Of a stretch of DNA of 64,000 nucleotides, positions 29,395-63,917 are shown piece by piece (position 1 is the stretch's first letter; every line of letters begins with the position of its first letter). This DNA is from Bilabrum cf. latius (lineage: Eukaryota). Location of the stretch: the NCBI GenBank assembly GCA_965178125.1, contig OZ237744.1:124001-188000 (forward strand). Reading direction: 5' to 3'. Below the pieces are notes generated by a model. The model was not told where the DNA came from and ran no database searches. It worked only from the letters and a program-made list of their open reading frames with translations. A program made the translations under genes and the position numbers.

Positions 29395-31906
<2,512 letters not shown>

Positions 31907-32648: not shown

Positions 32649-33746
32649 ATGGCAGCAGAGGCGTGCAAGCGCTTGAGCGACTCCGAGAACTGGAGATCTG
32701 GCCTCCAGGTGAGGTTGTCTAGGAAACCACTGAGCCCAAGCACCTTCTGCAGTCAGGCCTAGCCCAGCGGCGGGACAGAGCAGGAGCGTGCTCCTGGTGA
32801 TGGGTCTCCGGCCTCGACCTTGCCAGCACCGAAAGCTGCAGGGGACACCGAGGGGGCTGCAGCAGCAGGCACTAGCAGCAGCAGCAGCAGCAAGGGCGGC
32901 TCGGGCGCTGCAAGACTCGAGGGAGTCAAGCGGTACGGCCTAGTCGGCCGTCTCATGGCAAGCTTCGGGAAGGTTCGCTTGCTAGGGCCCGAGGTGGACG
33001 ACGAGGCAGCCGCAATTGCCGTGCAGGAGGCCGAGGTAGAGTCCGCCGGGGCAGGTGGGTGGAACCAGTCCAAGAAGAAGAGGCAAAGGAACAAGAAAAA
33101 GGGGTCCAGCGGGGCCGGTGCAGGGCAGGAGCTGCAGTTCCGGTTTACGGAGGTGGACAAAGGGGCGCTTCTGGAGCTGGCGACAGCATCTGGGGCAGCG
33201 ATGGGCGAGCCTTCAAAATTCGGCCCCAATAAGCTCCGGGCCAACGACTTGGTGCATTGCACGCTGGTGCAAGACCCTGAGGACCACGCCGGGTCGCTTC
33301 AAGCGACGGATGTCAGAGTGGTCAGGCTGGCGCCGCGCGCAGGTTCCGCAGCCCATCGGAGCGGGAGGCGATGGGCCGGAGCTGCGGACGATCAGGCGAG
33401 TAGGAAACGCTTCAACTACGGTCCTGCTGTAAGCGGGGCAAAATCAGGTTGGGCAGGCAGCGGGGCGGCGGGTGCGGTACCCGAGTCGGCTGGTGCAGCT
33501 GAGCCAGTGCTTAGGCAAGTGCTCACGTCACAGCTCGGTCCAAAGCGAGGGGGCACGTCAAGGTCGTCCGTGGTGCGGTCCACGGTGGCGGGCAGGGAAG
33601 AGGCGGAACGGGCCAAGGCTCTTGGCGCTGCAGCCAGTAGTGACCGCTCGCAGGTGTTTTTTCGGGAAGCCAAGGGGCCGCCGTACGGAGGCGAGCGGGG
33701 GTTCCAGCGTGTAAGAACGTGTTCGATGCCCCCAGCAGCTCAGTAA
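32649..33746 (+). CDS. Cold-shock/OB-fold domain plus SUZ-C motif protein (CSDE1/UNR-like C-terminal module)
   Basis: CSD-like GLVGRLMASFGKV..FRFTEV..LRANDLVHCTL..ATDVRVVR; SUZ-C-like FREAKGP..RGF. One in-frame TAG at 32760; ends TAA. The 5' end is uncertain. Confidence 0.55.
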
Positions 33747-36893: not shown

Positions 36894-37079
36894 AGGAGAT
36901 GTTGCTCAGAGTAGTTTTCTACACAGATCCGGGGATCGGCTCGGTGCACTCTTCAAACTTTAATTGTGGTGCCCCAATCAGGCCCTTGATGCAAGTTTGG
37001 CCGTTTGTCTCCGGGTCCTTCATGCACAGTCGGAATACGTTGGCACAAGTTGGAAGCAAGATACAGCCTGTAGGTCTCA

Positions 37080-39008
37080 TCATTTTCCAGCCTTAGAGCC
37101 ACTTGATCCACCGTCTCGGCGGCGATTCCTCCGCTATGGGTTGCGGCGCCCTGGCTACTGCTGCCCCCGAAACGCGCTGCTCGCACCTGTGCCATCAACA
37201 CCAGCAGCAGCACCATGGCCCGCTTGTTCTGACGAGTCTCCCAGACCCCCCACCATCGACTCGGACACCGCTGCACCTGACGAAACATGTCCAGCACCAG
37301 CGACAGCTCCGCCCGCCCCCACTGACCCTGCCTCTTTAGCTGATACCGATGATGCCCCCCAACCTCCACGAAGGCCATCCCCGCCAGCACCTTTACCTCC
37401 CCTCCCTGCCCTTGCACCCCCTGAGTCTTCAGCGCGGCCAGCTTCACCTGCACCTACACCTGCACCTGGACCTGCACCTGCACCTGCATCTGCATCTGCA
37501 TCTGCATCTGCACCTGCACCTGCACCTGCATCTGCTGCAGGCCTGATTGCCGCCAAGCACTGCCTAGCCCCTCCGCTGTCCCGAGCAATGGGGAACATCG
37601 CCACGGGGGAGGTGCACACGGGCTACTCAAACAGTCCCTTAAGATCCACATCGAAGAAGCACATGGATGACTTGCGTTTGCCTTCTCTACCTGCATCGCC
37701 GGACCCTGAGCACCCCGAGATCTTCAAGCACTACGCCACTACCGTCTAGATGTCCACAGCCGCTTTATTGAGCAGGGCCGGGTCTTCATCGACTGCTGGG
37801 TCAAGCCCGAACTGCTCGTGCATGCCTGCTTGCGAAGCGTCTACATCTACTGCACTGAACGGGATTCCAGCTCTCGCGCGATCCGGTTTGCGGCCCATCT
37901 TGAGGAGCGCAGAGCCGAGCTACTTCCACTTGACACCTATAACCATGCACTCCTCTATACGCGCAGCATGTCCCTGGCTGAGCCGCACCTTCTCTCTCCC
38001 AGATGCAGCGCCACCCGATGCCCCGCCCGATGCTTTTCCATCTTGCCCCCAAAGAGCTACAGCATGGTACGTCGATTCCACGTGCCTCATGTCCTTGGCC
38101 CCTCGCGAGCACTTGCCCTCGCGAGGCAGGAACACACGCACGGACAGAGGGTAGATGGCCGCCGCCGCCACGAAGCAGTCTCTAGCAGCATGACTGCCAT
38201 CATCTCCACTTCCTTTGTCTCCAGGACCGTCTCGCGGCAACTCGGACACGTCAAACACGCGAGGTACCGGTGTTCCCGGCAGTGCTCGGTTGAGCGAGTT
38301 CACAGAGTACGTGCCGATGGACAGGGCCCGCTGCGACATGCCTCCAATCGCCAGCTGGTCCACCGCCTGGCGGTTTCTAGGGCTGCCCTCGATCTCTTTC
38401 CACGAGTACACGAGTGCCTCGTTTCCGCTGTAGGTGGGCTCCTCCGGATCTCCGCGATCGCACATCGGGTTCGCGCTGGCAGCACCACCCGCTTTGGCTG
38501 CGCCGCCCTCCCCGCCTTCACCCGAACCTGATGAGGCAGCGCCAGAGCGTGCAGCAGGTGTGCTTGCCTTCGACTCTGCTTCTCGCTGTAGTTCGGCCTG
38601 AAGTCGAGTGTAGTACCGAGGCGCGAAAGCCGCCTGGTCGTTGGGCCCGTCGACCATGCACTCAATGTCCTCGACCATGGCGCCAATGCTTTCATCCTTG
38701 CCGATCTTCAAGGTCTAGTGCGACTTGGTGCAGTACTTGTTGCCGTCATTCTCCAGATATGTCCATCCATGTCCAGTGTTGCACGGCCGGCCCACCGCAT
38801 CAAAAGGTGAAGGGATCGGACACACCGTGACATGTTCCATGCGATACGAATAGATGGAGCCGGTGCAGGATGCGTTTGCGATTCCTAGCAGGCAAGTCAT
38901 GGCCCATCCGGATACGACGCTGGAAACTCCCGCGAGCCATCCGGTACTTCCCCACATTTGATCTCCTGGCCTGGACGCGCACAAACGAGCGACGGGGAGC
39001 GAGAACAT
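37080..39008 (-). CDS. Array gene A copy 1: hypothetical ~640 aa protein
   Basis: ORFs 38715-39008, 37920-38711 and 37155-37619 are in one frame joined by TAG; ends TGA; the frame is conserved across copies. Confidence 0.6.
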
Positions 39009-39302
39009 TCGTACAACCTGAATTGCCGGCCCTTAGCAGATCTTGTTATTTCAGTGTGCTCTTTGAACCAAACAATCTGATCCGGTATCGCCGCGCCAAG
39101 CGACGGAACCTCCCCGAAATAGAAGGTCGCAGTTGGTCGCAAAGAAGCTTGTCTAGTCGTCCAACTTGAAAGAGGGCGAACAGACGGCATCATCGCGCTG
39201 CTCTCACACCCTCTTGCCGTACAGCGATTGGCTTCAATATGCATCGCTACAAATCGTGCGCCGCCATGCTAAGACTGCAGCCAATTCGGATCTCAGCGCC
39301 CA

Positions 39303-41624
39303 TCAGTCCGCAACGAACACATGTCCGGAATCCGACTACTACACCTGGGCTTGCACCAGCGAGGCACCGTCACCAGGCAGCACCCACCCCATCACATCAC
39401 ACTCGTCACACAAACGACCCCAAAACTCATCCACACCATCCGCTCCACCATCATCACGCTCCCATGCCCCGCCGCACCACTCGCCCAACGCCCGCAACAC
39501 CCCCTCCGCGACCCCTTGCAGTCCACCCGAAGACACAAGCGGCACCAGACAGCGGCCTGCCGAGCCACAGTCATCATCTGTAGAAGCACCAGCTCTATCC
39601 ACTGCACTCTCGTGCGATGCGCCTGACCCCCGCCCCGCCAGAGCCACGCACCCATCCCGCAGCCCACGCAGCCCACGCAACAGCCGGTCTGCCCGCTCCC
39701 CTGCCCGCGCACTCGTCACACGCGCCCTGGCCTCCGCTGCCTCGGCCCGCATCTTGTTCTGCCTGTACGTGTCCCAGTCCCACATGTTGCCCAGCTTGGG
39801 CGGCTTGTCCTTGCGCCAGAAGAACATGTCCATCCCCGCCTCGTGCAGCTCTGCAGCATGATCGTCCTCACCGCCCCTTTCGCCCGAGTCCGCTGCCCCG
39901 TCCTCGTCACCTTTCGCGCCATCCTGCATGACGGCCGCCTCATCCACATCACCATCACCACCACCATCACCATCACCATCACTCTTGCCTGCCTGCTCGG
40001 CTTCACCCCCACTCAGCTCAGCCTCCAAGCCCGCATACCCAAGCCGCTTCCCGTACCGATCCAGCCACTCGTCACACCTCCCCTCTGCATGCACGCGCCA
40101 CCACTCCCGACTCGCCTCGATCTGAGCCAGACCCCCCTCGCCCCTCTCCCGCCACTCCAAGGCCTGCCCCCTCCAGTGCTCAGCCTGCTGCCGAGCATGA
40201 CCCACACGCTCGCACGCCACCTCGCACGCCCGCACCTCCTCGCCAAGCCCATCCGCAGCCCGCCTCGCCCACTCCCCGATGGCCTCCCTGCACCCGCTGC
40301 CACCGACACACTGCCTCACACACGCCTCCAACCAGCACACACTGCCACCCTCGCCCGCACCCTCGCCCACATGCTCCCCGCACGGCCACAGCCAGCCCAG
40401 CCTCGAGCTCTCCTGCAGCAACAGCCCCAGGCACTCCCCATGACCCCCGCCCAGAGCCCCGAACACAGGCCCGCCCAACCACCTCCCATGCCCGCAAGAC
40501 ACGCGCCCCTCCCGATCCAGGCCCCCTGCCAGTCGCCCCAGCCTCAGCCGCTTGCCCAGCTCCAGGGGCCTGCCCTGGCTTGCTGCCTGGAACACCATGC
40601 CCGCGTCTCTGCGCGCCTCTTGTGCCCTGCGCCATAGCAGCACACCCAGCCAGCGGGGGGCTGCATGGCGCTCCTAGTCGGCATGCGTGAATACAGGCGG
40701 CAGCAAGTCACCCGCTAGGTAGTGCACTTCGTAGTCACGATTATCCAAACCTGCCCACTCGACGCAGATGGGCGTGTCAGGACGCAGCCAGGGCTTGAGT
40801 GCGAGCAGGCCATCAAAGGAAGTGATGGATTCTCTCATCGTCAGTCTGAGCGCTTCCGACTGGTTCCTCTGCTTCAACGCGCCGGCAAGGATTTTGCAAG
40901 CCTCCGATCCAAAGAGGCAGTCTTCCACTTGCACCCATCGCAGCTTGCTGGGCCTTGGCGATGAAGCGGCTCTGGCAATGGCTCTGGCGGTCTCCAGTGC
41001 TGCCCCAGTGCTGTCGATGCAGATTCGCTCCAAGGCGCTGCATTTGACTCCTGCATCGATCAGACTGGCTGCATCCCGGTCGTCGATGTCACTTCCACGA
41101 ACGTCCAAGTGTTGAACGGACTAGCTACGCTGCAGGGCACCAGACAGCAACTGGCAGCACCGCGGTCCGAGTCCTGCGCTGTGTAACTTTAACTCTCGTA
41201 CACTGCTGAGCTTCTCACTGAGTGCGCAAACGGCCGGAAAGGGCAGCCTCTAGCCGTCCCTCATGTCAATTCGCTCCAGTCTACAGTCGCGTCTGATTGA
41301 CCTTGCGATCGCATGCACGCCGCTTCCTTTCGCACTGCCATAGAGATAGATAGTCTTTAGGCTAGTACACGTCGAGATGGCTCCGGCCACAGCAAGGACA
41401 GTTGCAGGTTCAAACAGTTGCCGGTGTGAATATCGAAGCCCTACAAGCGATGCTGATGACTTAATCATCTGGACAGAAACATCTTTGATAATGTCGGCCG
41501 GGATTTTGTCTCTGAACCCAAGCATCCAAGGCCCCTCAATCTGCGTGCATTCCTCAATGAACCGGCCGGTGCAACTCTGGTCCCATAGTTTCACAATCCT
41601 AGTTGGTATCATTCCACTGGCCAT
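39303..41624 (-). CDS. Array gene B copy 2 (LRR protein)
   Basis: Same structure as copy 1; ends ...QV(TAG)(TAG)SDSGHVFVAD TGA. Confidence 0.7.
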
Positions 41625-41810
41625 AGGAGATACTGTTCGAAATAGTTTTCTATACAGATCCGGGGATCGGCTCGGTGCACTCTTCAAACTTTAATTGTGG
41701 TGCCCCAATCAGGCCCTCGATGCAAGTTTGGCCGTTTGTCTCCGGGTCCTTCATGCACAGTCGGAATACGTTGGCACAAGTTGGAAGCAAGACACAGCCT
41801 GTAGGTCTCA

Positions 41811-43661
41811 TCATTTTCCAGCCTTAGAGCCACTTGATCCACCGTCTCGGCGGCGATTCCTCCGCTATGGGTTGCGGCGCCCTGGCTACTGCTGCCCCCG
41901 AAACGTGCTGCTCGCACCTGTGCCATCAACACCAGCAGCAGCACCATGCCCCGCTTGTTCTGACGAGTCTCCCAGACCTCCCACCTTCGATTCGGATACC
42001 CCTGCACCTGACGAAACATGTCCAGCACCAGCGACAGCTCCGCCCGCCCCCACTGACCCTGCCTCTTTAGCTGATACCGATGATGCCCCCCAACCTCCAC
42101 GAAGGCCATCCCCGCCAGCACCTTTACCTCCCCTCCCTGCCCTTGCACCCCCTGAGTCTTCAGCGCGGCCAGCTTCACCTGCACCTGCACCTGCATCTGC
42201 TGCAGGCTTGATTGCCGCCAAGCACTGCCTAGCCCCTCCGCTGTCCCGAGCAATGGGAAACATCGCCACGGGGGAGGTGCACACGGGCTACTCAAACAGT
42301 CCCTTTAGATCCACATCGAAGAAGCACATGGATGACTTGCGTTTGCCTTCTCTACCTGCATCGCCGGACCCTGAGCACCCCGAGATCTGCAGGCACTACG
42401 CCACTACCGTCTAGATGTCCACAGCCGCTTTATTGAGCAGGGCCGGGTCTTCAGCGACTGCTGGGTCAAGCCCGAACTGCTCGTGCATGCCTGCTTGCGA
42501 AGCGCCTACATCTACTGCACTGAACGGGATTCCAGCTCTCCCGCGATCCGGTTTGCGGCCCATCTTGAGGAGCGCAGAGCCGAGACCCTGCCAGTCGACA
42601 TCTCTAACCATGCAATCCTCTATGCGCTCCGTGTGTCCCTTGCTTAGCCGCACCTTCTCTCTCCCAGATGCAGCGCCACCCGATGCCCCGCCCGACGCTT
42701 TTCCATCTTGCCCCCAAAGAGCTACAGCATGGTACGTCGATTCCACGTGCCTCATGTCCTTGGCCCCTCGCGAGCACTTGCCCTAGCGAGGCAGGAACAC
42801 ACGCACGGACAGAGGGTAGATGGCTGCCGCCGCCACGAAGCAGTCTCTAGCAGCATGGTTGCCATCATCTCCACTTCCTTTGTCTCCAGGACCGTCTCGC
42901 GGCAACTCGGACACGTCAAACACGTGAGGTACCGGTGTTCCCGGCAGTGCTCGGTTGAGCGAGTTCACAGAGTACGTGCCAATGGACAGGGCCCGCTGCG
43001 ACATGCCTCCAATCGCCAGCTGGTCCACCGCCTGGCGGTTTCTAGGGCTGCCCTCGATCTCTTTCCACGAGTACACGAGTGCCTCGTCTCCGCTGTAGGT
43101 GGGCTCCTCCGGATCTCCGCGATCGCACATCGCGCTGGCAGCACCACCCGCTTTGGCTGCGCCGCCCTCCCCACCTTCACCCGAACCTGATGAGGCAGCG
43201 CCAGAGCGTGCAGCAGGTGTGCTTGCCTTCGACTCTGCTTCTCGCTGTAGTTCGGCCTGACGTCGAGTGTAGTACCGAGGCGCGAAAGCCGCCTGGTCGT
43301 TGGGCCCGTCGACCATGCACTCAATGTCCTCGACCATGGCGCCAATGCTTTCATCCTTGCCGATCTTCAAGGTCTAGTGCGACTTGGTGCAGTACTTGTT
43401 GCCGTCATTCTCCAGATATGTCCATCCATGTCCAGTGTTGCACGGCTCGCCCACCGCATCAAAAGGTGAAGGGATCGGACACACCGTGACATGTTCCATG
43501 CGATACGAATAGATGGAGCCGGTGCAGGATGCGTTTGCGATTCCTAGCAGGCAAGTCATGGCCCATACGACGCTGGAAACTCCCGCGAGCCATCCGGTAC
43601 TTCCCCACATTTGATCTCCTGGCCTGGACGCGCACACACGAGCGACGGGGAGCGAGAACAT
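41811..43661 (-). CDS. Array gene A copy 2
   Basis: In-frame paralog joined by TAGs; ends TGA. Confidence 0.6.
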
Positions 43662-43955
43662 TCGTACAACCTGAATTGCCGGCCCTTAGCAGATCTTGTT
43701 ATTTCAGTGTGCTCTTTGAACCAAACAATCTGATCCGGTATCGCCGCGCCAAGCGACGGAACCTCCCCGAAATAGAAGGTCGCAGTTGGTCGCAAAGAAG
43801 CTTGTCTAGTCGTCCAACTTGAAAGAGGGCGAACAGACGGCATCACCGCGCTGCTCTCACACCCTCTTACCGTACAGCGATTGGCTTCAATATGCATCGC
43901 TACAAATCGTGCGCCGCCATGCTAAGACTGCAGCCAATTCGGATCTCAGCGCCCA

Positions 43956-46519
43956 TCAGTCCGCAACGAACACATGTCCGGATTCCGACTACTACACCTG
44001 GGCTTGCACCAGCGAGGCACCGTCACCAGGCAGCACCCACCCCATCACATCACACTCGTCACACACACGACCCCAAAACACATCCACACCATCCGCCCCA
44101 CCATCATCACGCTCCCATGCCCCGCCGCACCACTCGCCCAACGCCCGCAATACCCCCTCCGCGACCCCTTGCAATCCACCCGAAGACACAAGCGGCACCA
44201 GACAGCGGCCTGCCGAGCCAGACCGACTGCCGCCATCATCTGTTGAAGCACCAGCTCTATCCACTGCACTCTCGTGCGATGCGCCTGACCCCCGCCCCGC
44301 CAGAGCCACGCACCCATCCCGCAGCCCACGCAGCCCACGCAACAGCCGGTCTGCCCGCTCCCCTGCCCGCGCACTCGTCACACGTGCCCTGGCTTCCGCT
44401 GCCTCGGCCCGCATCTTGTTCTGCCTGTACGTGTCCCAGTCCCACATTTTGCCCAGCTTGGGCGGCTTGTCCTTGCGCCAGAAGAACATGTCCATCCCGG
44501 CCTCGTGCAGCTCTGCAGCATGATCGTCCTCACCGCCCCTTTCGCCCGAGTCCGCTGCCCCGTCCTCGTCACCTTTCGCGCCATCCTGCATGACAGCCGC
44601 CTCATCCACATCACCATCACCACCACCATCACCATCACCATCACCACCACTCTTGCCTGCCTGCCCACCTTCACCCCCACTCAGCTCAGCCTCCAAGCCC
44701 GCATACCCAAGCCGCTTCCCGTACCGATCCAGCCACTCGTCACACCTCCCCTCTGCATGCACGCGGCACCACTCCCGACTCGCCTCGATCTGAGCCAGAC
44801 CCCCCTCGCCCCTCTCCCGCCACTCCAAGGCCTGCCCCCTCCAGTGCTCAGCCTGCTGCCGAGCATGACCCACACGCTCGCACGCCAGCTCACACGCCCG
44901 CACCTCCTCGCCAAGCCCATCCGCAGCCCGCCTTGCCCACTCCCCGATGGCCTCCCTGCATCCGCTGCCACCGACACACTGCCTCACACAGGCCTCCAAC
45001 CAGCACACACTGCCGCCCTCGCCCGCACCCTCGCCCACATGCTCCCCGCACGGCCATAGCCGGCCCAGCCTCGAGCTCTCCTGCAGCAACAGCCCCAGGC
45101 ATTCCCCATGACCCCCGCCCAGAGCCCCGAACACAGGCCCGCCCAACCACCTCCCACGCCCGCTAGACACGCGCCCCTCCCGATCCAGGCCCCCTGCCAG
45201 TCGCCCCAGCCTCAGCCGCTTGCCCAGCTCCAGGGGCCTGCCCTGGCTTGCTACCTGGAACACCATGCCCGCGTCTCTGCGCGCCTCTTGTGCCCTGCGC
45301 CACAGCAGCACACCCAGCCAGCGGGGGGCTGCATGGCGCTCCTAGTCGGCATGCGTGAATACAGGCGGCAGCAAGTCACCCGCTAGATGATGCACTTCGT
45401 AGTCACGATTATCCAAACCTGCCCACTCGACGCAGATGGGCGTGTCAGGACGCAGCCAGGGCTTGAGTGCGAGCAGGCCATCAAAGGAAGTGATGGAGTT
45501 GATCATCGTCAGTCTGAGCGCTTCTGACTGCTTCCTCTGCTTCAACGCATCGGCAAGGATTTTGCAAGCCTCCGATCTAAAGAGGCAGTCTTCCGCTTGC
45601 ACCCATCGCAGCTTGCTGGGCCTTGGCGATGCAGCGGCTCTGGCAATGGCTCTGGCGGTCTCCAGTGCTGCCCCAGTGTTGTCGATGCAGATTCGCTCTA
45701 AGGCGCTGCATTTGACTCCAGCATCGATCAGACTGGCTGCATCCCGGTCGTCGATGTCACTTCCACGAACGTTCAAATATCGAACGGACTAGCCACGCTG
45801 CAGGGCACCAGACAGCAACTGGCAGCACCGCGGTCCGAGTCCTGCGCTGTGTAACGGTATTAAGGAGACAGAGTCTGATTCGTTGTTGACGTCAAATGAG
45901 ATGATAAGCGTCTGTGCGATGAGGATGGCTCTGCGAAGAAGGAGAACGCCGCAACACCTTGTCCGTAGGTGGGAAGAGGAATTGTAGCGTTAGACATCGT
46001 AATCTGATTAACGATGCCATGTCTGGTTGTATTTGGGTGGTTGAGTCTGTAAAAGAAGCTTTCATGGAAGTCACGATGTCACGTTAACTCTCGTACACTG
46101 CTGAGCTTCTCACTGAGGGCGCAAACGGCCGGAAAGGGCAGCCTCTAGCCGTCCCTCATGTCAATGCACTCCAGTCTGCAATCGCGTCTGATTGACCTTG
46201 CAATCGCATGCACGCCGCTTCCTTTCGCACTGCCATAGAGATAGATAGCCTTTAGGCTAGTGCACGTCGAGATGGCTCCGGCCACAGCAAGGACAGTTGC
46301 AGGTTCAAACAGTTGCCGGTGTGAGTAGTCAAGCCCTGCAAGCGATGCTGATGACTTAATCATCTGGACAGAAACATCTTTGATAATTTCACTCGGGATT
46401 TTGTCTCTGAACCCAAGCTTCCAAGGCCCCTCAATCCGCGTGCATTCCTCAATGAACCGGCCGGTGCAACTCTGGTCCCATAGTACCACATACCTAGTTG
46501 GTATCATTCCACTGGCCAT
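43956..46519 (-). pseudogene. Array gene B copy 3, interrupted by a 227 nt insertion
   Basis: The insertion at 45857-46083 is absent from copies 1, 2 and 4, and its length is not a multiple of 3. Confidence 0.65.
45857..46083. mobile_element. 227 nt insertion with apparent 3-bp target-site duplication (ACG)
   Basis: The empty site is GTAACGTTAAC in copies 1 and 4; here it is GTAACG-[224 nt]-ACG-TTAAC. It shares a 31-nt exact match with 13051-13081 (inverted). Confidence 0.6.
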
Positions 46520-46706
46520 AGGAGATACTGCTCAGAATAATTTTCTATACAGATCCGGGGATCGGCTCGGTGCACTCTTCAAACTTTAATTGTGGTGCCC
46601 CAATTCAGGCCCTCGATGCAGCTTTGGCCGGTTGTCTCCGGGTCCTTCATGCACAGTCGGAATACGTTGGCACAAGTTGGAAGCAAGACACAGTCTGTAG
46701 GTCTCA

Positions 46707-48569
46707 TCATTTTCCAGCCTTAGAGCCACTTGATCCACCGTCTCGGCGGCGATTCCTCCGCTATGGGTTGCGGCGCCCTGGCTACTGCTGCCCCCGAAAC
46801 GCGCTGCTCGCACCTGTGCCATCTTTACCAGCAGCAGCACCATGCCCCGCTTGTTCTGACGAGTCTCCCAGACCTCCCACCTTCGATTCGGATACCCCTG
46901 CACCTGACGAAACATGTCCAGCACCAGCGACAGCTCCGCCCGCCCCCACTGACCCTGCCTCTTTAGCTGATACCGATGATGCCCCCCAACCTCCACGAAG
47001 GCCATCCCCGCCAGCACCTTTACCTCCCCTCCCTGCCCTTGCACCCCCTGAGTCTTCAGCGCGGCCAGCTTCACCTGCACCTGCACCTGCACCTGCATCT
47101 GCTGCAGGCTTGATTGCCGCCAAGCACTGCCTAGCCCCTCCGCTGTCCCGAGCAATGGGAAACATCGCCACGGGGGAGGTACACACGGGCTACTCAAACA
47201 GTCCCTTTAGATCCACATCGAAGAAGCACATGGATGACTTGTGTTTGCCTTCTCTACCTGCATCGCCGGACCCTGAGCAACCCGAGATCTGCAGGCACTA
47301 CGCCACTACCGTCTAGATGTCCACAGCCGCTTTATTGAGCAGGGCCGGGTCTTCAGCGACTGCTGGGTCAAGCCCGAACTGCTCGTGCATGCCTGCTTGC
47401 GAAGCGTCTACATCAACTGCACTGAACGGGATTCCAGCTCTCCCGCGATCCGGTTTGCGGCCCATCTTGAGGAGCGCAGAGCCGAGATCCTGCCAGTCGA
47501 CATCTCTAACCATGCAATCCTCTATGCGCTCCGTGTGTCCCTTGCTTAGCCGCACCTTCTCTCTCCCAGATGCAGCGCCACCCGATGCCCCGCCCGACGC
47601 TTTTCCATCTTGCCCCCAAAGAGCTACAGCATGGTACGTCGATTCCACGTGCCTCATGTCCTTGGCCCCTCGCGAGCACTTGCCCTAGCGAGGCAGGAAC
47701 ACACGCACGGACAGAGGGTAGATGGCTGCCGCCGCCACGAAGCAGTCTCTAGCAGCATGGTTGCCATCATCTCCACTTCCTTTGTCTCCAGGACCGTCTC
47801 GCGGCAACTCGGACACGTCAAACACGCGAGGTACCGGTGTTCCCGGCAGTGCTCGGTTGAGCGAGTTCACAGAGTACGTGCCAATGGACAGGGCCCGCTG
47901 CGACATGCCTCCAATCGCCAGCTGGTCCACCGCCTGGCGGTTTCTAGGGCTGCCCTCGATCTCTTTCCACGAGTACACGAGTGCCTCGTCTCCGCTGTAG
48001 GTGGGCTCCTCCGGATCTTTGCGATCGCACATCGCGCTGGCAGCACCACCCGCTTTGGCTGCGCCGCCCTCCCCACCTTCACCCGAACCTGATGAGGCAG
48101 CGCCAGAGCGTGCAGCAGGTGTGCTTGCCTTCGACTCTGCTTCTCGCTGTAGTTCGGCCTGAAGTCGAGTGTAGTACCGAGGCGCGGAAGCCGCCTGGTC
48201 GTTGGGCCCGTCGACCATGCACTCAATGTCCTCGACCATGGCGCCAATGCTTTCATCCTTGCCGATCTTCAAGGTCTAGTGCGACTTGGTGCAGTACTTG
48301 TTGCCGTCATTCTCCAGATATGTCCATCCATGTCCAGTGTTGCACGGCTCGCCCACCGCATCAAAAGGTGAAGGGATCGGACACACCGTGACATGTTCCA
48401 TGCGATACGAATAGATGGAGCCGGTGCAGGATGCGTTTGCGATTCCTAGCAGGCAAGTCATGGCCCATCCGGATACGACGCTGGAAACTCCCGCGAGCCA
48501 TCCGGTACTTCCCCACATTTGATCTCCTGGCCTGGACGCGCACACACGAGCGACGGGGAGCGAGAACAT
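46707..48569 (-). CDS. Array gene A copy 3
   Basis: In-frame paralog joined by TAGs; ends TGA. Confidence 0.6.
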
Positions 48570-48863
48570 TCGTACAATCTGAATTGCCGGCCCTTAGCAG
48601 ATCTTGTTATTTCAGTGTGCTCTTTGAACCAAACAATCTGATCCGGTATCGCCGCGCCAAGCGACGGAACCTCCCCGAAATAGAAGGTCGCAGTTGGTCG
48701 CACAGAAGCTTGTCTAGTCGTCCAACTTGAAAGAGGGCGAACAGACGGCATCACCGCGCTGCTCTCACACCCTCTTACCGTACAGCGATTGGCTTCAATA
48801 TGCATCGCTACAAATCGTGCGCCGCCATGCTAAGACTGCAGCCAATTCGGATCTCAGCGCCCA

Positions 48864-51206
48864 TCAGTCCGCAACGAACACATGTCCGGATTCCGACTAC
48901 TACACCTGGGCTTGCACCAGCGAGGCACCGTCACCAGGCAGCACCCACCCCATCACATCACACTCGTCACACACACGACCCCAAAACACATCCACACCAT
49001 CCGCCCCACCATCATCACGCTCCCATGCCCCGCCGCACCACTCGCCCAACGCCCGCAATACCCCCTCCGCGACCCCTTGCAATCCACCCGAAGACACAAG
49101 CGGCACCAGACAGCGGCCTGCCGAGCCAGACCGACTGCCGCCATCATCTGTTGAAGCACCAGCTCTATCCACTGCACTCTCGTGCGATGCGCCTGACCCC
49201 CGCCCCGCCAGAGCCACGCACCCATCCCGCAGCCCACGCAGCCCACGCAACAGCCGGTCTGCCCGCTCCCCTGCCCGCGCACTCGTCACACGTGCCCTGG
49301 CTTCCGCTGCCTCGGCCCGCATCTTGTTCTGCCTGTACGTGTCCCAGTCCCACATGTTGCCCAGCTTGGGCGGCTTGTCCTTGCGCCAGAAGAACATGTC
49401 CATCCCGGCCTCGTGCAGCTCTGCAGCATGATCGTCCTCACCGCCCCTTTCGCCCAAGTCCGCTGCCCCGTCCTCCTCACCTTTCGCGCCATTCTGCATG
49501 ACAACTGCCTCATCCACATCCACATCACCATCACCATCACCATCACCATCACCATCACCACCACTCTTGCCTGCCTGCCCACCTTCACCCCCACTCAGCT
49601 CAGCCTCCAAGCCCGCATACCCAAGCCGCTTCCCGTACCGATCCAGCCACTCGTCACACCTCCCCTCTGCATGCACGCGCCACCACTCCCGACTCGCCTC
49701 GATCTGAGCCAGACCCCCCTCGCCCCTCTCCCGCCACTCCAAGGCCTGCCCCCTCCAGTGCTCAGCCTGCTGCCGAGCATGACCCACACGCTCGCACGCC
49801 AGCTCACACGCCCGCACCTCCTCGCCAAGCCCATCCGCAGCCCGCCTCGCCCACTCCCCGATGGCCTCCCTGCATCCGCTGCCACCGATACACTGCCTCA
49901 CACACGCCTCCAACCAGCACACACTGCCGCCCTCGCCCGCACCCTCGCCCACATGCTCCCCGCACGGCCACAACCAGCCCAGCCTCGAGCTCTCCTTCAG
50001 CAACAGCCCCAGGCACTCCCCATGACCCCCGCCCAGAGCCCCGAACACAGGCCCGCCCAACCACCTCCCACGCCCGCTAGGCACGCGCCCCTCCCGATCC
50101 AGGCCCCCTGCCAGTCGCCCCAGCCTCAGCCGCTTGCCCAGCTCCAGGGGCCTGCCCTGGCTTGCTGCCTGGAACACCATGCCCGCGTCTCTGCGCGCCT
50201 CTTGTGCCCTGCGCCACAGCAGCACACCCAGCCAGCGGGGGGCTGCATGGCGCTCCTAGTCGGCATGCGTGAATACAGGCGGCAGCAAGTCACCCGCTAG
50301 ATGATGCACTTCGTAGTCACGATTATCCAAACCTGCCCACTCGACGCAGATGGGCGTGTCAGGACGCAGCCAGGGCTTGAGTGCGAGCAGGCCATCAAAG
50401 GAAGTGATGGAGTTGATCATCGTCAGTCTGAGCGCTTCTGACTGCTTCCTCTGCTTCAACGCATCGGCAAGGATTTTGCAAGCCTCCGATCCAAAGAGGC
50501 AGTCTTCCACTTGCACCCATCGCAGCTTGCTGGGCCTTGGCAATGCAGCGGCTCTGGCAATGGCTCTGGCGGTCTCCAGTGCTGCCCCAGTGCTGTCGAT
50601 GCAGATTCGCTCCAAGGCGCTGCATTTGATTCCTGCATCGATCAGACTGGCTGCATCCCGGTCGTCGATGTCACTTCCACGAACGTCCAAGCATCGAACG
50701 GACTAGCCACGCTGCAGGGCACCAGACAGCAACTGGCAGCACCGCGGTCCGAGTCCTGCGCTGTGTAACGTTAACTCTCGTACACTGCTGAGCTTCTCAC
50801 TGAGGGCGCAAACGGCCGGAAAGGGCAGCCTCTAGCCGCCCCTCATGTCAATGCACTCCAGTCTGCAGTCACGTCTGATTGACCTTGCAATCGCATGCAC
50901 GCCGCTTCCTTTCGCACTGCCATCGAGATAGATAGCCTTTAGGCTAGTACACGTCGAGATGGCTCCGGCCACAGCAAGGACAGTGGCAGGTTCAAACAGT
51001 TGCCGGTGTGAGTAGTCAAGACCTGTAATCGACCTCGATGATGTAAGAATAGAAACTGATACTTCCCGAATAATGTCGGCCGGGATTTTGTCTCTGAATC
51101 CAAGCATCCAAGGCCCCTCAATCTGCGTGCATTCCTCTTTGAACCGGCCGGTGCAACTCTGGTCCCATAGTTTCACAAACCTAGTTGGTATCATTCCACT
51201 AGCCAT
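48864..51206 (-). CDS. Array gene B copy 4 (LRR protein)
   Basis: Same structure as copy 2. Confidence 0.7.
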
Positions 51207-51393
51207 AGGAGATACTGCCCAGAATAGTTTTCTACACAGATCCGGGGATCGGCTCGGTGCACTCTTCAAACTTTAATTGTGGTGCCCCAATTCAGGCCCT
51301 CGATGCAAGTTTGGCCGTTTGTCTCCGGGTCCTTCATGCACAGTCGGAATACGTTGGCACAAGTTGGAAGCAAGACACAGTCTGTTGGTCTCA

Positions 51394-51973
51394 TCATTTC
51401 CCAGCCTAAGAACCACTTGATCCACCGTCTCGGCGGCGATTCCTCCGCTATGGGTTGCGGCGCCCTGGCTACTGCTGCCCCCGAAACGTGCTGCTCGCAC
51501 CTGTGCCATCAACACCAGCAGCAGCACCATGGCCCGCTTGTTCTGACGAGTCTCCCAGACCCCCCACCTTCAATTCGGACACCCCTGCACCTGACGAAAC
51601 ATGTCCAGCACCAGCGACAGCTCCGCCCGCCCCCACTGACCCTGCCTCCCCTGACCCTGCCTCTTCAGCTGATACCGATGCCGATGATGCCTCCCTGCCT
51701 CCACCAAGGCCATCCCCGCCACCACCTTCACCTCCCCTCCCTTCCCTTGCACCTCCTGAGTCTTCAGCGCGGCCAGCTTCACCTGCACCTGCGCCTGCAT
51801 CTGCTGCAGGCCTGATTGCCGCCAAGCACTGCCTAGCCCCTCCGCTGTCCCGAGCAATGGGGAACATCGCCACGGGGGAGGTACACACGGGCTACTCAAA
51901 CAGTCCCTTTAGATCCACATCGAAGAAGCACATGGATGACTTGTGTTTGCCTTCTCTATCTACATCGCCAGAC
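51394..51973 (-). pseudogene. 5'-truncated remnant of array gene A
   Basis: Similarity to gene A stops at ~51973, next to the B9D1 3' end. Confidence 0.7.
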
Positions 51974-52097
51974 ACTGTTCGTGCAGTGCCCTGCAGTTGC
52001 AGCGAGGCTCTACAGCATGGCTTCCAGTACCAGGTTCAATGCGCAGAAACACATGCTGACTACGACAGAAAGGCAACAGAACGTGACTGGCCAGCAC

Positions 52098-54218: not shown

Positions 54219-55247
54219 ATGGTAAGATCATTAGAACCACTATATACTGATGCATTACCGAGGGGGTAGGCCAGCCGCGAACGATGAGCAAGGTAGAGTT
54301 TGCCGCAAGCCTGCTCTCTGCACCAGCTTGTGGCGGCTCGGTCCGGCGTGCCCCGATGCATGCAACAGATCAAACTATGACCGTTTAAAAAATGTGCATG
54401 TCTCCATCTCTTTGACGCCTCGTTCTGCTTTGGTCTTTGTCACTCGCAGCCGCGCGGACCGCGGAAGCACTTGAAGCGCCTCAATGCGCCCAGCGCATGG
54501 ATGCTGGACAAAATGGGCGGCGTGTGGGCCCCCAAGTGCTCGGCTGGACCCCACAAGGTGTCTGAGTCCATGCCTCTGGTGCTGGTGCTGCGAAACCGCC
54601 TCAAGTACGCGCTCACCCGCCAGGAGACCATCAAGGTCTGCATGAACAAGTCTGTGCGCGTGGACGGCAAGGTGCGCACCGATATCAACTTCCCCTGCGG
54701 CTTCCAGGATGTTGTTTCCGTGCCAGCGGCCGATGAGTCCTACCGCGTCATGTACGACGCGAAGGGCCGCTTCGTGCTGCACAAGGTCAAGGCCGACGAG
54801 AAGGACATCAAGCTGTGCAAGGTGGTGCGCCAGGCGTACACCACCAAGCGCATCCCTTTCATCGTGACCCACGACGGGCGCACCATCCGGTACCCCCACC
54901 CCGACATCAAGGTCAACGACAGCGTGGTGCTCAACACCAAGACCAACAAGATCGAGCAGATCGTCAAGTTCGACATCGGCAACTCGGTCATGATCGTGAA
55001 GGGAGGCAACACCGGCCGTGTCGGCGTGATCGTGGGCCGCGACAGGCACCCCGGTTCCTTCGACATCGTGCACGTGCGCGACGCGTCCGGCGTGCGCTTC
55101 GCCACCCGCATGAACAACGTGTTCATGATTGGCACCGCCGACGAGGAGGGCAAGCCCGTGAGCGTTGTGACCCTGCCCCGCGGCAAGGGCGTCAAGAAGA
55201 GCATCATGCAGGAGCGCGAGAGGCGCCTGGCCATCGGCGGCCACTAA
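54219..55247 (+). CDS. RPS4: 40S ribosomal protein S4 (eS4)
   Basis: ATG|GTAAGA exon 1 at 54219-54221, intron 54222-54449, then PRGPRKHLKRLNAP..RNRLKYALT..THDGRTIRYP..FATRMNNVF..LPRGKG; TAA at the expected C-terminus. Confidence 0.98.
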
Positions 55248-57743: not shown

Positions 57744-59405
57744 ATGCACTAGTGGTCAAGGCCAATAGCTTGCGTGGCGGGACGCTCCGGATCTATTGCA
57801 AGTCACATTGGGATTGCATGGGCGGTGTCGTGCCTGTTGGTGCTTGCAGATGCATCCTGCACTGGATCTATCTATTAGTATCGTATGGAGCATGTCACTT
57901 TATGTCCTGTGTCCACTGATTTGGTTGCGGCGGACGTCAAATGCCACACGAGACATGGATGGACCCATCTGCAACTCGACGGCAAAAATTACTGCACCAA
58001 GTCGCACTAGACCTTGAAGATCGGCAAGGATGAAAGCATTGGTGCCATGTTAGAGGATATCGAGTGCATGGTCGACGGGCCCTACGATCAGGCGGCTTTC
58101 GCGCCTCGCTACAACACGAGATTGCAAGAGAAGCTTCGACGGGAGGACGAGGCAAGTGGAACTGGAACGACGAAGAGAGCAGCAACAGGCTCTGGAAGCT
58201 CCGGAGCAGCTGCAATGGAGGCAGACGATGGAACTGCTAATTTGATGTGCGATCGCGGAGATCCGGAGGAGCCCACCTACAGCGGAGACGAGGCACTCGT
58301 GTACTCGTGGAAAGAGATCGAGGGCAGCCGTAGAAACCGCCAGGCAGTGGACCAGCTGGCGATTGGAGGCATGTCGCAGCGGGCCCTGTCCATCGGCACG
58401 TACTCTGTGAACTCGCTCAACCGAGCATTGGCTAGAAAAGCGATAGCTGATGTGTTTGAAGTGTCCAAATCGCCGAAGGGTGCTACCAGTGGTTCTAGTA
58501 GTTCAAGGCTTGCTGCTAGGGGCTGCTTCGTGGCAGCTGCGGCCATCTATCCACTGTCCGTGCGTGTGTTTCTGCCTCGTGAGGGCGAGTGCTCCGACGA
58601 TGCCAGGACGATGAGGCACGTGGAATCGACGTACCACGCAATCGCTCAACTCAACGGGGCAGCGCCATTCGTAGCAGGCAAGGGCGAGCGCAAAGTTCCG
58701 CAGGGGTGGAATGGAGCGCTTAGCAAATAATATGCGGCTCGTATCATAGAATGCAGGGTTGGACCAAGCGATCCGAGAAGTGTTGGACCCCCTCTCCTTA
58801 AGATGGGCAGGGAGAATGATCGCAGAAGCGCCGGTGTCCCGTTCAGCGCGGTGGGTGCAGGTGACCCGTAGGCAGGCATGCACGAGCAGTTCGGGCTTGA
58901 CCCTGAAAAGGTTGATGGGCGTGACAAGCTTGATGAGGCAGCACAATGCATCAACTCGGCTGCTGTAGCTTGCTTGGGCATTGGTTGGTGCTCCGCCTCC
59001 AGCGGGGCGAAGGCAATGGATGCCGATGATGATCTATCCACCTGCTTCTACGATGTAGACCTCGGTTTGTTGAGGCGTCAGCCGATATGCATCGCACCTA
59101 TGGCTGCATTTTCTGTCCCGAGGGAAACAACTGCTCGAGCCTGCCTTGCGGCGAGATTTAGCTCTAGAGCCGGAACCGGGTTGCTGGCGGAAGCCGACAG
59201 TGGCGTGGCACTGCATGCCGCGCAGGACCAAGGTCTCTTGCAAGAGGAGGGCTCTACAATCGCTTCAGAGGAAAAGAAAGGTGACGGTGCTGCTAGCAGG
59301 GCGCCTGAAGGGGGTCTGGACGGTCTGTAGGAGCTCTTGCCCAAGGGACACGGCTCAGTTCGTCGCAACCGGCATCGCTCACTGGCAGACGCGGAGTTGT
59401 GGTGA
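57744..59405 (+). pseudogene. Divergent array gene A copy with one in-frame TAA (58728)
   Basis: Homology to gene A continues in the same frame after TAA 58728-58730; ends TGA. Confidence 0.55.
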
Positions 59406-59492
59406 ACCACAAGTTCGGCACAATCGTTTATTACCACCAGAGAAGAGTTGTGCTTTTCGAATAGGCTATAAACCGACGTGACACTTCATCGA

Positions 59493-61835
59493 ATGAATGC
59501 GGAGATCTTGAGTTCAAGGTATACGGATGTCGTTGCCAGTGAATTGGTGCAATTAGGTTGCTCAGATGACGCAGATCAATACTTGCAAGGCAGCCTCTGC
59601 TAGGAAAGCCCTATTTAGCTCAGATTTAGTCGCTGGACCACGCAACGTATCCTGGATGCGGTATCCAGCAAGCTAATCAGAGACTCTACTAGTAGTAGTA
59701 CGTCTCTTGTTGGGCTCAGCTTTTCGGATGGGCAGCTGCAGGCAGCTCGGACTGTCAGCGTAGTAGTCCATTTTCTCTCAATCAACACAAGCTTACGAAT
59801 GCTCCACCTACACGATTGTGCGTCGAGGGATGGAATTCATGCGATCGCCAGGGCCATCCGAGACGACGCTACGCTTAAGGTCATAGGTTTTGACAGCTAG
59901 AAGCTACCGTTTCCGGCCGTTTGTGCTATTTCCTTAAAAATGGCGGCGATGCACAGTCTGAAAACACTACTCATGCGAGGCGCAGGGCTAGGGGCGAGAG
60001 GATGCAAGCTACTCTCTTCAGCAATCACGAGAAGCTCGTCGATTCGGTTGCTTGATCTGAGTCGGAACCTCATTGGTGATAGGGAGATCGCCAGTCTGAC
60101 CGAAGCTGTTGGCCGTTGCAGTTCCATGGAGCACCTGTGCATTTCCAGGACGGGCGCATCAGTTGCGACTGCAAGAGCGATCGCCAGGCTCCTCTAGCAG
60201 AAGACGCAGATGAGGTACTTGGAAGCCGATAGCTGCTTTTTCGGGGGGAAGGCATGCCGCATGCTGGCTGGCGCCTTCCAGTGCTATTCTGGCATCGTCG
60301 CAATGCGGCTGCAAAACTCCATCACTTCCTTTGATGGCCTGCTCGCACTCAAGCCCTGGCTGCGTCCTGACACGCCCATCTGCGTCGAGTGGGAAGGCGA
60401 TGACACGGTGCACGACCTCGCGGGCGACTTGCTACCGCGCCCACCTTCGATCGATGACTGCAATGTTGATTACCGTAAGATGGGTGTGCTGCTGTGGCGC
60501 AGGGCACAAGAGGCGCGCAGAGACGCGGGCATGGTGTTCCAGGCAGCAAGCCAGGGCAGGCCCCTGGAGCTGGGCAAGCGGCTGAGGCTGGGGCGACTGG
60601 CAGGGGGCCTGGATCGGGAGGGGCGCGTGTCTTGCGGGCATGGGAGGTGGTTGGGCGGGCCTGTGTTCGGGGCTCTGGGCGGGGGTCATGGGGAATGCCT
60701 GGGGCTGTTGCTGCAGGAGAGCTCGAGGCTGGGCCGGCTATGGCCGTGCGGGGAGTGGGTGGGTGAGGGTGCGGGCGAGGGCGGCAGTGTGTGCTGGTTG
60801 GAGGCGTGTGTGAGGCAGTGTGTCGGTGGCAGCGGGTGCAGGGAGGCCATCGGGGAGTGGGCAAGGCGGGCTGCGGATGGGCTTGGCGAGGAGGTGCGGG
60901 CGTGCGAGGTGGCGTGCGAGCGTGTGGGTCATGCTCGGCAGCAGGCTGAGCACTGGAGGGGGCAGGCCTTGGAGTGGCGGGAGAGGGGCGAGGGGGGTCT
61001 GGCTCAGATCGAGGCGAGTCGGGAGTGGTGGCGCGTGCATGCAGAGGGCAGGTGTGACGAGTGGATGGATCGGTACGGGAAGCGGCTTGGGTATGCGGGC
61101 TTGGAGGCTGAGCTGAGTGGGGGTGATGAAGGGCAGGCAGGCAAGAGTGATGGGGATGGTGATGTGGATGATGATGTGGATTTGGATGAGGCGGCTGTCA
61201 TTCAGGATGGCGCGAAAGATGACGAAGACGGGGCAGCGGATTCGGGCGAAAGGGGCGGTGAGGACGATCATGCTGCAGAGCTGCACGAGGCCGGGATGGA
61301 CATGTTCTTCTGGCGCGAGGACGAGCCGCCCAAGCTGGGCAACAGGTGGGACTGGCACACGTACAGACGGAATAAGATGCGGGCCGAGGCAGCGGAAGCC
61401 AGGGCGCGTGTGACGAGTGCGCGGGCAGGGGAGCGGGCAGACCGGCTGTTGCGTGGGCTGCGTGGGCTGCGGGATGGGTGCGTGGCTTTGGCGGGGCGGG
61501 GATCAGGCGCATCGCACGAGAGTGCAGTGGATAGAGCTGGTGCTTCTACAGATGATGGGGGCAGTCTATCTGGCTCGGCAGGCCGCTGTCTGGTGCCGCT
61601 TGTGTCTTCGGGTGGACTGCAAGGGGTTGCACAGGGGGTGTTGCGGGCGTTGGGCGAGTGGTGCGGCGGGGCATGGGAGCGTGATGATGGTGGAGCGGAT
61701 GGTGTGGATGTGTTTTGGGGTCGTGTGTGTGACGAGTGTGATGTGATGGGGTGGGTACTGCCTGGTGACGGTGCCTCGCTGGTGGAAGCCCAGGTGCAGT
61801 AGTCGGAATCCGGACATGTGTACGTTGCGGACTGA
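59493..61835 (+). CDS. Array gene B copy 6: divergent LRR region, conserved C-terminal region
   Basis: One frame broken only by TAG. LRRs LKTLLMRGAGLGARGC and IRLLDLSRNLIGDREI; ends TGA. Confidence 0.75.
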
Positions 61836-62129: not shown

Positions 62130-63917
62130 ATGTTCTCGCTCCCCGTCGCTCGTGTGTGTGCGTTCAGGCCAGGAGATCAAAAGTGGGGAAGTACCGGATG
62201 GCTCGCGGGAGTTTCCAGCGTCGTATGGGCCATGACTTGCCTGCTAGGAATCGCAAACGCATCCTGCACCGGCTCCATCTATTAGTATCGCATGGAACAT
62301 GTCACGGTGTGTCCGATCCCTTCACCTTTTGATGCGGTGGGCCAGCCGTGCAACACTGGACATGGATGGACCCATCTGCAACTCGACGGCAAAAATTACT
62401 GCACCAAGTCGCACTAGACCTTGAAGATCGGCAAGGATGAAAGCATTGGCGCCATGGTCGAGGATATCGAGTGCATGGTCGACGGGCCCAACGACCAGGC
62501 GGCTTTCGCGCCTCGGTACTACACTCGACTTCAGGCCGAACTACAGCGAGAAGCAGAGTTGAAGGCAAGCACACCCGCTGCACGCTCTGGCGCTGCCTCA
62601 TCAGGTTCGGGTGAAGGCGGGGAGGGCGGCGCAGCCAAAGCGGGTGGTGCTGCCAGCGCGAACCCGATGTGCGATCGCGGAGATCCGGAGGAGCCCACCT
62701 ACAGCGGAGACGAGGCACTCGTGTACTCGTGGAAAGAGATCGAGGGCAGCCCTAGAAACCGCCAGGCAGTGGACCAGCTGGCGATTGGAGGCATGTCGCA
62801 GCGGGCCCTGTCCATCGGCACGTACTCTGTGAACTCGCTCAACCGAGCCCTGCCGGGAACACCGGTACCTCACGTGTTTGACGTGTCCAAGTTGCCGCGA
62901 GACGGTCCTGGAGACGAAGGAAGTGGAGATGATGGCAGTCATGCTGCTAGAGACTGCTTCGTGGCAGCTGCGGCCATCTACCCTCTGTCCGTGCGTGTGT
63001 TCCTGCCTCGCGAGGGCAAGTGCTCGCGAGGGGCCAAGGACATGAGGCACGTGGAATCGACGTACCATGCTGTAGCTCTTTGGGGGCAAGATGGAGAAGC
63101 GTCGGGCGGGGCATCGGGTGGCGCTGCATCTGGCAGAGAGAAGGTGCGGCTCAGCCTGGGACATGCTGCGCGCATAAAGGATTGCATGGAGACAGATGTC
63201 GACTGGCAGGATCTCGGCTCTGCGCTCATCAAGATGGGCCGCAAACCGGATCGCGCGAGAGCTGGGATCCCGTTCAGTGCAGTGGATGTAGGCGCTTCGC
63301 AAGCAGGCATGCACGAGCAGTTCGGGCTTGACCCAGCAGTCGATGAAAACCCGGCCCTGCTCAATGAAGCGGCAGTGGCCATCTAGACGGTAGTGGCGTA
63401 GTGCTTGAAGATCTCGGGGTGCTCAGGGTCCGGCGATGCAGATGGTGAAGGCAAACACAAGTCATCCATGTGCTTCTTCGATGTGGATCTAAAGGGGCTG
63501 CTTGAGTAGCCCGTGTGCACCTCCCCCGTGGCGATGTTCCCCATTGCTCGGGACAAGGGAGGGGCTAGTCAGTGCTTGGCGGCAACCAGGCCTGCAGCAG
63601 ATGCAGATGCAGATGCAGGTACAGGTGCAGGTGCAGGTGCAGGTGCAGGTGCAGGTGCAGGTGCAGGTGCAGGTGCAGGTGCAGGTGCAGGTGCAGGTGC
63701 AGGTGCAGGTGCAGGTGCAGGTGCAGGGATGTCCGAATCGAAGGTGGGGGGTCTGGGAGACTCGTCAGAACAAGCGGGGCATGGTGCTGCTACTGGTGGT
63801 GATGGCACACCTGCAAGCAGCGCGTTTCGGGGGCAGCAGTAGCCAGGGCGCCGCAACCCATTGCGGAGGAATCGCCGCCGAGACGGTGGATCAAGTGGCT
63901 CTAAGGCTGGGAAATGA
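62130..63917 (+). CDS. Array gene A copy (inverted arm)
   Basis: In-frame paralog joined by TAGs; ends TGA; the array continues off the right edge. Confidence 0.6.
63598..63726 (+). repeat. (GCAGGT)n hexamer microsatellite encoding poly(Ala-Gly)
   Basis: About 20 tandem hexamers; much shorter in the other gene A copies. Confidence 0.9.

Follow-up and report, generated by a model that had tools for sequence, protein, structure and literature searches.

Iotanema translates UAG as glutamine (Gln) and the rhizarian exLh translates it as Leu; CUA-anticodon tRNAs are predicted for both, and the eRF1 changes T32G and L69A, respectively, are described in the parts of PMC5304391 consulted. UAG is likewise assigned to Gln in Hartmannula and Trochilia, with Protocruzia cited as a further example, and the consulted parts of PMC11687900 record no suppressor tRNA in these two Gln cases. 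The stretch analyzed here (the window) is a 64,000-nucleotide segment, C10:124001-188000 of the genome assembly, and contains at positions 34560-63917 two orphan genes, A and B, in multiple copies that form an inverted tandem array. An earlier note on this DNA had claimed that TAG exchanges with CAG and CAA among the array copies and behaves as a synonymous Gln codon. From the comparisons described below, we estimate with a probability of roughly 0.88 that TAG has been reassigned to Gln in this nuclear genome while TAA and TGA are kept as stops, a code of the table-15 type. TAG would then be translated as Gln genome-wide, and genes would end by TGA and TAA. The decoder would be a single CUA-anticodon tRNA, presumably an expressed one to which GlnRS attaches Gln, and eRF1 is predicted to have lost UAG recognition. 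TAA would remain a stop, since no pairing is possible between a CUA anticodon and UAA.

Nineteen dynein heavy-chain stretches each contained one frame of 2,420-3,332 codons, most of them filling the whole 10-kb stretch. The frames were delimited by TAA or TGA, and the force of the result lies in the existence of frames of such length. Together they comprise 62,107 codons with 270 TAG, 2,268 CAG, and 391 CAA, TAG amounting to 9% of the Gln codons. The stretch encoding DHC2 alone has 48 TAG. In the alignment of DHC2 with 120 homologs, Gln occupied all seven TAG columns conserved at 90% or more, and the log-likelihood over 41 TAG sites was highest for Gln (+23), followed by Glu (-30), with Tyr in 17th place of 20 (-111). 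A dynein paralog profile covering 135 TAG sites gave +81.6 for Gln and -71.2 for the next residue, Glu; per site, TAG resembled CAG and CAA, and Gln was found in 15 of the 18 TAG columns conserved at 70% among the paralogs. The share of TAG among Gln codons climbs from less than 1% to 25% with falling GC content at third codon positions, as that of a synonymous codon would. Many nuclear genes have in-frame UAG where Gln is conserved, as in table-15-type codes. Pyrrolysine, Leu, Glu, Tyr, and Trp as the meaning of TAG were ruled out by the likelihood at TAG sites.

Orthologs of Prp8 provided a comparison at the codon level. A metagenome scan returned 80 of 405 confirmed Prp8 loci, among which contigs L162 and L190 represent the Prp8 of a close relative (2,613 aligned codons). 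All ten TAG codons of the relative stand opposite CAG in the present genome, and the three TAG codons of the present genome stand opposite CAA, GAC, and GAG in the relative. The earlier note would have been contradicted by random substitution of TAG; CAG or CAA was instead found opposite TAG in 11 of the 13 TAG-bearing columns. Among the 80 loci, six others carried many TAG together with TAA, and many TAG without TAA occurred only in L162/L190. The proposal that TAG is a synonymous Gln codon is thus borne out genome-wide by the conserved-column alignments and the ortholog swaps, and further by the CUA-anticodon tRNA and the absence of TAG from 53 gene ends, both described below. As a separate observation, the Prp8 on metagenome contig L228 has 17 in-frame TGA opposite Ser, Ala, Arg, Val, and Thr, not Trp, and possibly derives from a UGA-reassigned organism.

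Several observations weigh against a reassignment to Gln or against its details. At 70% conservation, 7 of the 15 TAG columns of DHC2 are not Gln but Glu, His, Arg, Leu, or Ser, although CAG and CAA are spread equally (Gln in 8/15 columns for TAG, 7/14 for CAG, and 9/19 for CAA). One TAG in GluRS stands opposite Trp/Tyr in solved homologs, and one of the two TAG codons of eRF1, at position 69, coincides with a residue that is Leu in 117 of 118 homologs. CAG or CAA appears in only 3 of the 11 well-aligned variable TAG columns of the array. Over its whole sequence the CUA tRNA is most similar to tRNA-Tyr(GUA) (68%), followed by tRNA-Gln(UUG) (65%) and tRNA-Gln(CUG) (60%), and it retains the C1-G72 pair. 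Further TAG decoders beside it are possible, since 63 of 780 candidates were scored in the Rfam tRNA search, and the search by pattern is blind to intron-containing genes. Finally, the lineage assignment comes from one gene tree (DHC2), in which a long branch and composition bias were flagged.

The CUA-anticodon tRNA is encoded by a single-copy gene at G000:C23:907607-907679, found by the Rfam search (69.8 bits) and the pattern search, with a canonical cloverleaf and a downstream T-run. ARAGORN labeled it "Pyl" from the anticodon alone; a pyrrolysine system was rejected in view of the canonical cloverleaf and the alignment of TAG to Gln, no search for PylRS having been made. Judging from its sequence, the tRNA is not a simple copy of tRNA-Gln(CUG), and its identity features are a mixture of Tyr and Gln. 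It shares 10 of 12 acceptor- and anticodon-stem pairs with tRNA-Tyr(GUA), whereas none of 204 non-isoacceptor pairs exceeds 8; these stems were picked for comparison after the data had been seen, and over all 20 pairs tRNA-Tyr is again the best match (score 13), yet 5 of the 204 null pairs reach that score. The D-stem and G73 match tRNA-Gln(UUG). According to the parts of PMC9976931 consulted, Tyr identity in eukaryotes is determined by A73, C1-G72, G34, and U35, and the bacterial Gln determinants include G73 and U35. Of the four Tyr determinants, the CUA tRNA has lost G34 and A73 and kept C1-G72 and U35. A Tyr-derived tRNA that then switched to Gln identity is plausible, with the odds about even, because of these determinants and because Gln-inserting amber suppressors of other origin are described in the same source. 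Alignment of GlnRS with the human enzyme only revealed no interpretable change at the anticodon site. The tRNA set showed two other peculiarities. Two nuclear tRNA-Ile genes (L015 and L075; G000:C32:91173 and C4:952092) have a GAT anticodon, which is unusual among eukaryotes, and Ala and Thr have ANN anticodons. In addition, AT-rich tRNA-Met(CAT)-like genes, at least six of them and nearly identical (L029, L070, L073, L078-L080), have a scaffold in common with tRNA-Pro(TGG) and are possibly a repeat family or a mobile-element tRNA.

The mixed features raise the question of whether TAG is ambiguous between Gln and Tyr, the CUA tRNA being partly charged by TyrRS through C1-G72 and U35. The stem pairs common with tRNA-Tyr and the GluRS TAG opposite Trp/Tyr speak for such charging. 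Nevertheless, we consider it improbable: Tyr ranks near the bottom at the DHC2 TAG sites, occupies none of 42 conserved paralog columns, and makes up 1% of the residues opposite TAG; none of the 13 TAG-bearing Prp8 columns pairs with TAC or TAT; and half of the listed Tyr determinants are gone from the tRNA.

Stop usage was determined at 53 diagnosable gene ends, which comprised 44 TGA, 9 TAA, and no TAG, with an upper 95% bound of about 6% for TAG; TAG may still terminate genes rarely. Among Rab/Ras genes, the Cys motif was found at 20 of 27 ends (16 TGA and 4 TAA), and 15 of the 19 dyneins could be followed to the end (12 TGA and 3 TAA). The proteasome/HslV subunits ended with TGA in all 12 cases and had no TAG in their tails. 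Of the single genes, three endoplasmic reticulum (ER) proteins and Prp8 end with TGA, and eRF1 and eS4 with TAA. UAA and UGA thus terminate genes and are absent from the interiors of the 19 dynein frames, and UAG is unused as a terminator at the 53 ends. Three Rab-like genes (L106, L108, and L095) are clustered at G000:C32:477838-485759, two of them having acidic tails without a prenylation motif.

A context-dependent TAG of the Condylostoma type, read as Gln within genes and as a stop near the transcript end, would fit the TAG codons located 1-13 codons before the terminal TGA in gene B copies (including the 55858 B copy) and in two EGF-domain genes. We regard this dual meaning as slightly less probable even than the Gln/Tyr ambiguity, since no diagnosable end uses TAG and neither TAA nor TGA occurs inside the dynein frames. 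The pattern of xDEL followed by a stop had 45 matches versus 92 for a reversed control; 30 of the 45 were read, giving three clear ER-protein ends, and 8 of the 10 xDEL-TAG matches examined were not ER-protein ends. In a small and strict Markov coding-segment test (254 kb, 30 segments), 16 segments ended at TGA/TAA and one near TAG, equal to control codons.

The swaps in the array on which the earlier note was founded were re-examined by sequence re-reading and codon alignment, leaving out one mis-framed partial copy. Positions 61794-61805 do read GTG CAG TAG TCG, and the minus-arm copies of gene B read GTG TAG TAG TCG (TAG codons at 39339/39336, 43992/43989, and 48900/48897). In gene A, the TAG at 58869 stands opposite CAA at 63300, 37830, 42495, and 47397. 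The alignment added a third Gln swap, CAG at 59079 versus TAG at 63507, 37623, 42288, and 47190, and contained the non-Gln exchanges GAG/TAG (42783 and 47685), TCG/TAG, and TTG/TAG already noted. The tabulation of codons that the note had called for therefore showed the swaps to be real but gave no clear excess of CAG/CAA: their share of the variable columns becomes 3/14 if three from the divergent N-terminus of gene B are added, and the remaining eight of the 11 well-aligned columns have TCG (twice), GAG, TTG, GAT/GGT/AGT, AAC, GCT, and TGC. The array genes are under weak constraint, their ratio of nonsynonymous to synonymous substitution rates (dN/dS) being 0.27-1.1. Two of the cited swaps also carry caveats: 58869 lies downstream of an in-frame TAA (58728) in the same gene A copy, and 61797/61800 lies 11-12 codons upstream of the terminal TGA, a location in which TAG acting as a stop could not be told apart. 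The swaps are true yet insufficient alone for TAG = Gln, and under such a code they would represent ordinary synonymous drift.

The fast evolution of the array and the copy with a true premature TAA, which was found without differences in a public-run contig too, might suggest that the TAG codons are nonsense mutations in decaying paralogs, assembly errors, sites of leaky readthrough, or targets of RNA editing. This explanation is largely refuted. TAG occurs in essential genes (Prp8, eRF1, GluRS, proteasome subunits, and dynein), was reproduced in independent public runs, and stands at different Gln sites in the relative. In spliced contigs of run X1, four in-frame TAG codons, one in the MraW/RsmH gene (30506) and three in the RRM-like gene (32574, 32601, and 32760), were unchanged with no other letters, which argues against editing. 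The RNA status of runs X1-X3 was inferred from GT..AG joints, no run being recorded as RNA, and runs X4/X5 are possibly the source of the present DNA. The least probable alternative is that both TAA and TAG encode Gln (table 6), TAA being infrequent simply because the genome is GC-rich. Most known nuclear codes do couple the two codons (parts of PMC11687900), but the 62,107 dynein codons contain no TAA despite 391 CAA, TAA immediately follows the conserved C-terminus in nine genes, no UUA-anticodon tRNA was found among the Rfam candidates scored or in the pattern search, and table-6-like environmental Prp8 loci, unlike the present lineage, carry both codons.

Returning to the reassignment of TAG alone, eRF1 (C35, L005) has N30D, I35V, S60V, A27T, and K130H, which are absent from all of 110-118 homologs. 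In human numbering, N30D is beside GTS and S60V is within TASNIKS, and I35V and L69Q are also present, while GTS, NIKS, S70, the YxCxxxF motif, and Thr32 are kept. We infer that N30D, I35V, S60V, and L69Q weaken the reading of UAG. L69Q is not specific to recoders, because a solved eRF1 (PDB 8ip8) also has Gln at position 69. The two TAG codons of the eRF1 gene itself, at positions 44 and 69, are in the N-domain responsible for stop recognition, and one is the last codon of an exon; position 44 is Gln in 116 of 118 homologs. An eRF1 that still read UAG would truncate itself through these two codons. A possible, though tentative, scenario to which we give somewhat less than even odds is that this is the first nuclear code change in a stramenopile and arose by a tRNA identity switch. 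A duplicated tRNA-Tyr would have changed its anticodon from GUA to CUA, dropped G34 and A73, and gained G73 and a tRNA-Gln-like D-stem; this Tyr-scaffold amber suppressor would deliver Gln genome-wide, and the two UAG codons of eRF1 would lock the change in by self-truncation.

The genome (48.6 Mb, 111 contigs) has spliceosomal introns with GT..AG joints and a ribosomal DNA (rDNA) array on C12. The AT-rich mitochondrial contig follows table 4 and has a UCA tRNA, as in Cafileria and Cafeteria (parts of PMC6723347), a feature not unique to that group. The best named match of DHC2 was Cafeteria roenbergensis, and in a tree of 36 rows (35 of 120 homologs) the query grouped with C. roenbergensis and two further sequences (100/98). 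The organism, a single-celled eukaryote, is likely a bicosoecid stramenopile related to the marine flagellate Cafeteria; a cox1 homolog search yielded no lineage. The three neighbors in the DHC2 tree are recorded as proteins of 4,196-4,414 residues, and should these have been predicted under the standard code, the TAG change would be confined to the present branch. A second rDNA unit (G000:C95:6099-11430; L066, L263) is on a 17.9-kb contig, and its 18S is 77-83% identical to that of C12; it likely belongs to a contaminant or co-cultured eukaryote and is presumably alveolate-like.

The features of the window are listed in Table 1. Reading through TAG yields long window genes, namely a PDE, a GH39, an MraW-family methylase, and two EGF-domain proteins, one with FG-GAP repeats; counts of open reading frames under alternative stop sets were not decisive, as dropping TGA lengthens frames as well. 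The duplicated large membrane-protein-like genes at 8357-12079 and 15666-22742 have Ser/Thr/Pro-rich repeats and EGF domains, the longer also having the FG-GAP repeats. Full copies in the minus-strand array arm have 3-7 in-frame TAG each. Gene A is confined to the array locus; the 62130 copy had no Pfam match, and among 1.84 billion representatives only one marginal match (E 6e-4) and no convincing homolog was found. The N-terminus of gene B is strongly divergent between the arms and leucine-rich-repeat-like by eye, without a Pfam match, and its C-terminal part is nearly identical. The eS4 name in the table is our tentative assignment from the sequence.

Table 1. Positions of the array copies, codon exchanges, and other TAG-related features in the window
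Feature	Position	Strand	Remarks
In-frame TAG within MraW/RsmH methyltransferase domain	30506..30508	+	Second domain TAG at 30704
Last exon of RRM-like gene	32335..33746	+	In-frame TAG at 32574, 32601, 32760; frame ends with TAA
Minus-strand array arm	34560..51992	-	Four B copies (one partial), three full A copies, one A fragment
TAG TAG in gene B copy	39336..39341	-	Likewise at 43989-43994 and 48897-48902
Presumed ribosomal protein eS4-like gene	54449..55247	+	No TAG; TAA end; poly(A) tail at 55437 in run X3
Divergent gene A copy	57744..59405	+	62% identity to the 62130 copy; TAA-interrupted
In-frame TAA interrupting divergent gene A copy	58728..58730	+	Other copies: GGA-type sense codons
TAG in divergent gene A copy	58869..58871	+	Opposite CAA in four copies
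CAG in divergent gene A copy	59079..59081	+	Opposite TAG in four copies
Gene B copy	59493..61835	+	780 codons; 5 in-frame TAG; TGA end; no Pfam match
CAG TAG near C-terminus of gene B	61797..61802	+	Opposite TAG TAG in three minus-arm copies; TGA at 61833
Gene A copy	62130..63917	+	595 codons; 6 in-frame TAG; ends with TGA TGA

The present genome is a further case of a rare, known code type, in a lineage for which no reported case was found. The literature searched for nuclear recoding in stramenopiles, from which most subscription papers and all supplements were absent (it included parts of PMC11687900, PMC10553269, PMC11412368, PMC10120064, and 2026 preprints), contained none; a database record or supplement may already mention such a case. 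The code, the candidate tRNA, GlnRS, and eRF1 are available together in a near chromosome-scale assembly, complemented by spliced data from public runs and by a relative that is also recoded. This makes two questions testable: how eRF1 drops UAG yet keeps UAA and UGA, and what the origin of the decoding tRNA is. In practice, standard-code annotation would truncate many genes of this lineage, and an eRF1 ignoring only UAG would be useful for amber-suppression work.

In comparison with known systems, the present CUA tRNA resembles the Gln-inserting amber suppressors of E. coli, where CUA tRNAs of other origin become GlnRS substrates via U35 and a Lys amber suppressor moves toward Gln when it has G73 (PMC9976931); the present tRNA has both U35 and G73. 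These suppressors are bacterial laboratory mutants and the eukaryotic Gln elements are blank in the table of that source, so we draw the parallel as a suggestion. The table-6 codes with UAR = Gln (Tetrahymena, hexamitins, ulvophytes, Streblomastix, and Amoeboaphelidium) also read UAG as Gln by a CUA tRNA, but here TAA is a working stop and the corresponding UUA tRNA did not appear in either search. As in exLh and the TARA phyllopharyngean metagenome-assembled genomes (PMC5304391, PMC11687900), UAG is uncoupled from UAA, and Leu69 of eRF1 is changed both in exLh (L69A) and here (L69Q, by a TAG codon). The amino acid is Leu in those organisms and Gln here. Their suppressor tRNAs arose from the isoacceptor for the newly assigned residue, whereas the present one is tRNA-Tyr-like in two stems. 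The closest counterparts are Iotanema spirale and the ciliates Hartmannula sinica, Trochilia petrani, and Protocruzia tuzeti, which share UAG = Gln with UAA and UGA as stops and no sign of a dual meaning (PMC5304391, PMC11687900, PMC10089648). The present lineage, likely Bicosoecida, is unrelated to them. It keeps Thr32 of eRF1, which is T32G in Iotanema, and has a candidate tRNA(CUA), which was undetected in H. sinica and T. petrani and only predicted for Iotanema. Its main stop is TGA (44/53), whereas UAA is used at 86.9-98.3% of gene ends in the recoded phyllopharyngeans; the argument in the literature that near-universal use locks UAA in is therefore inapplicable as such to this genome.

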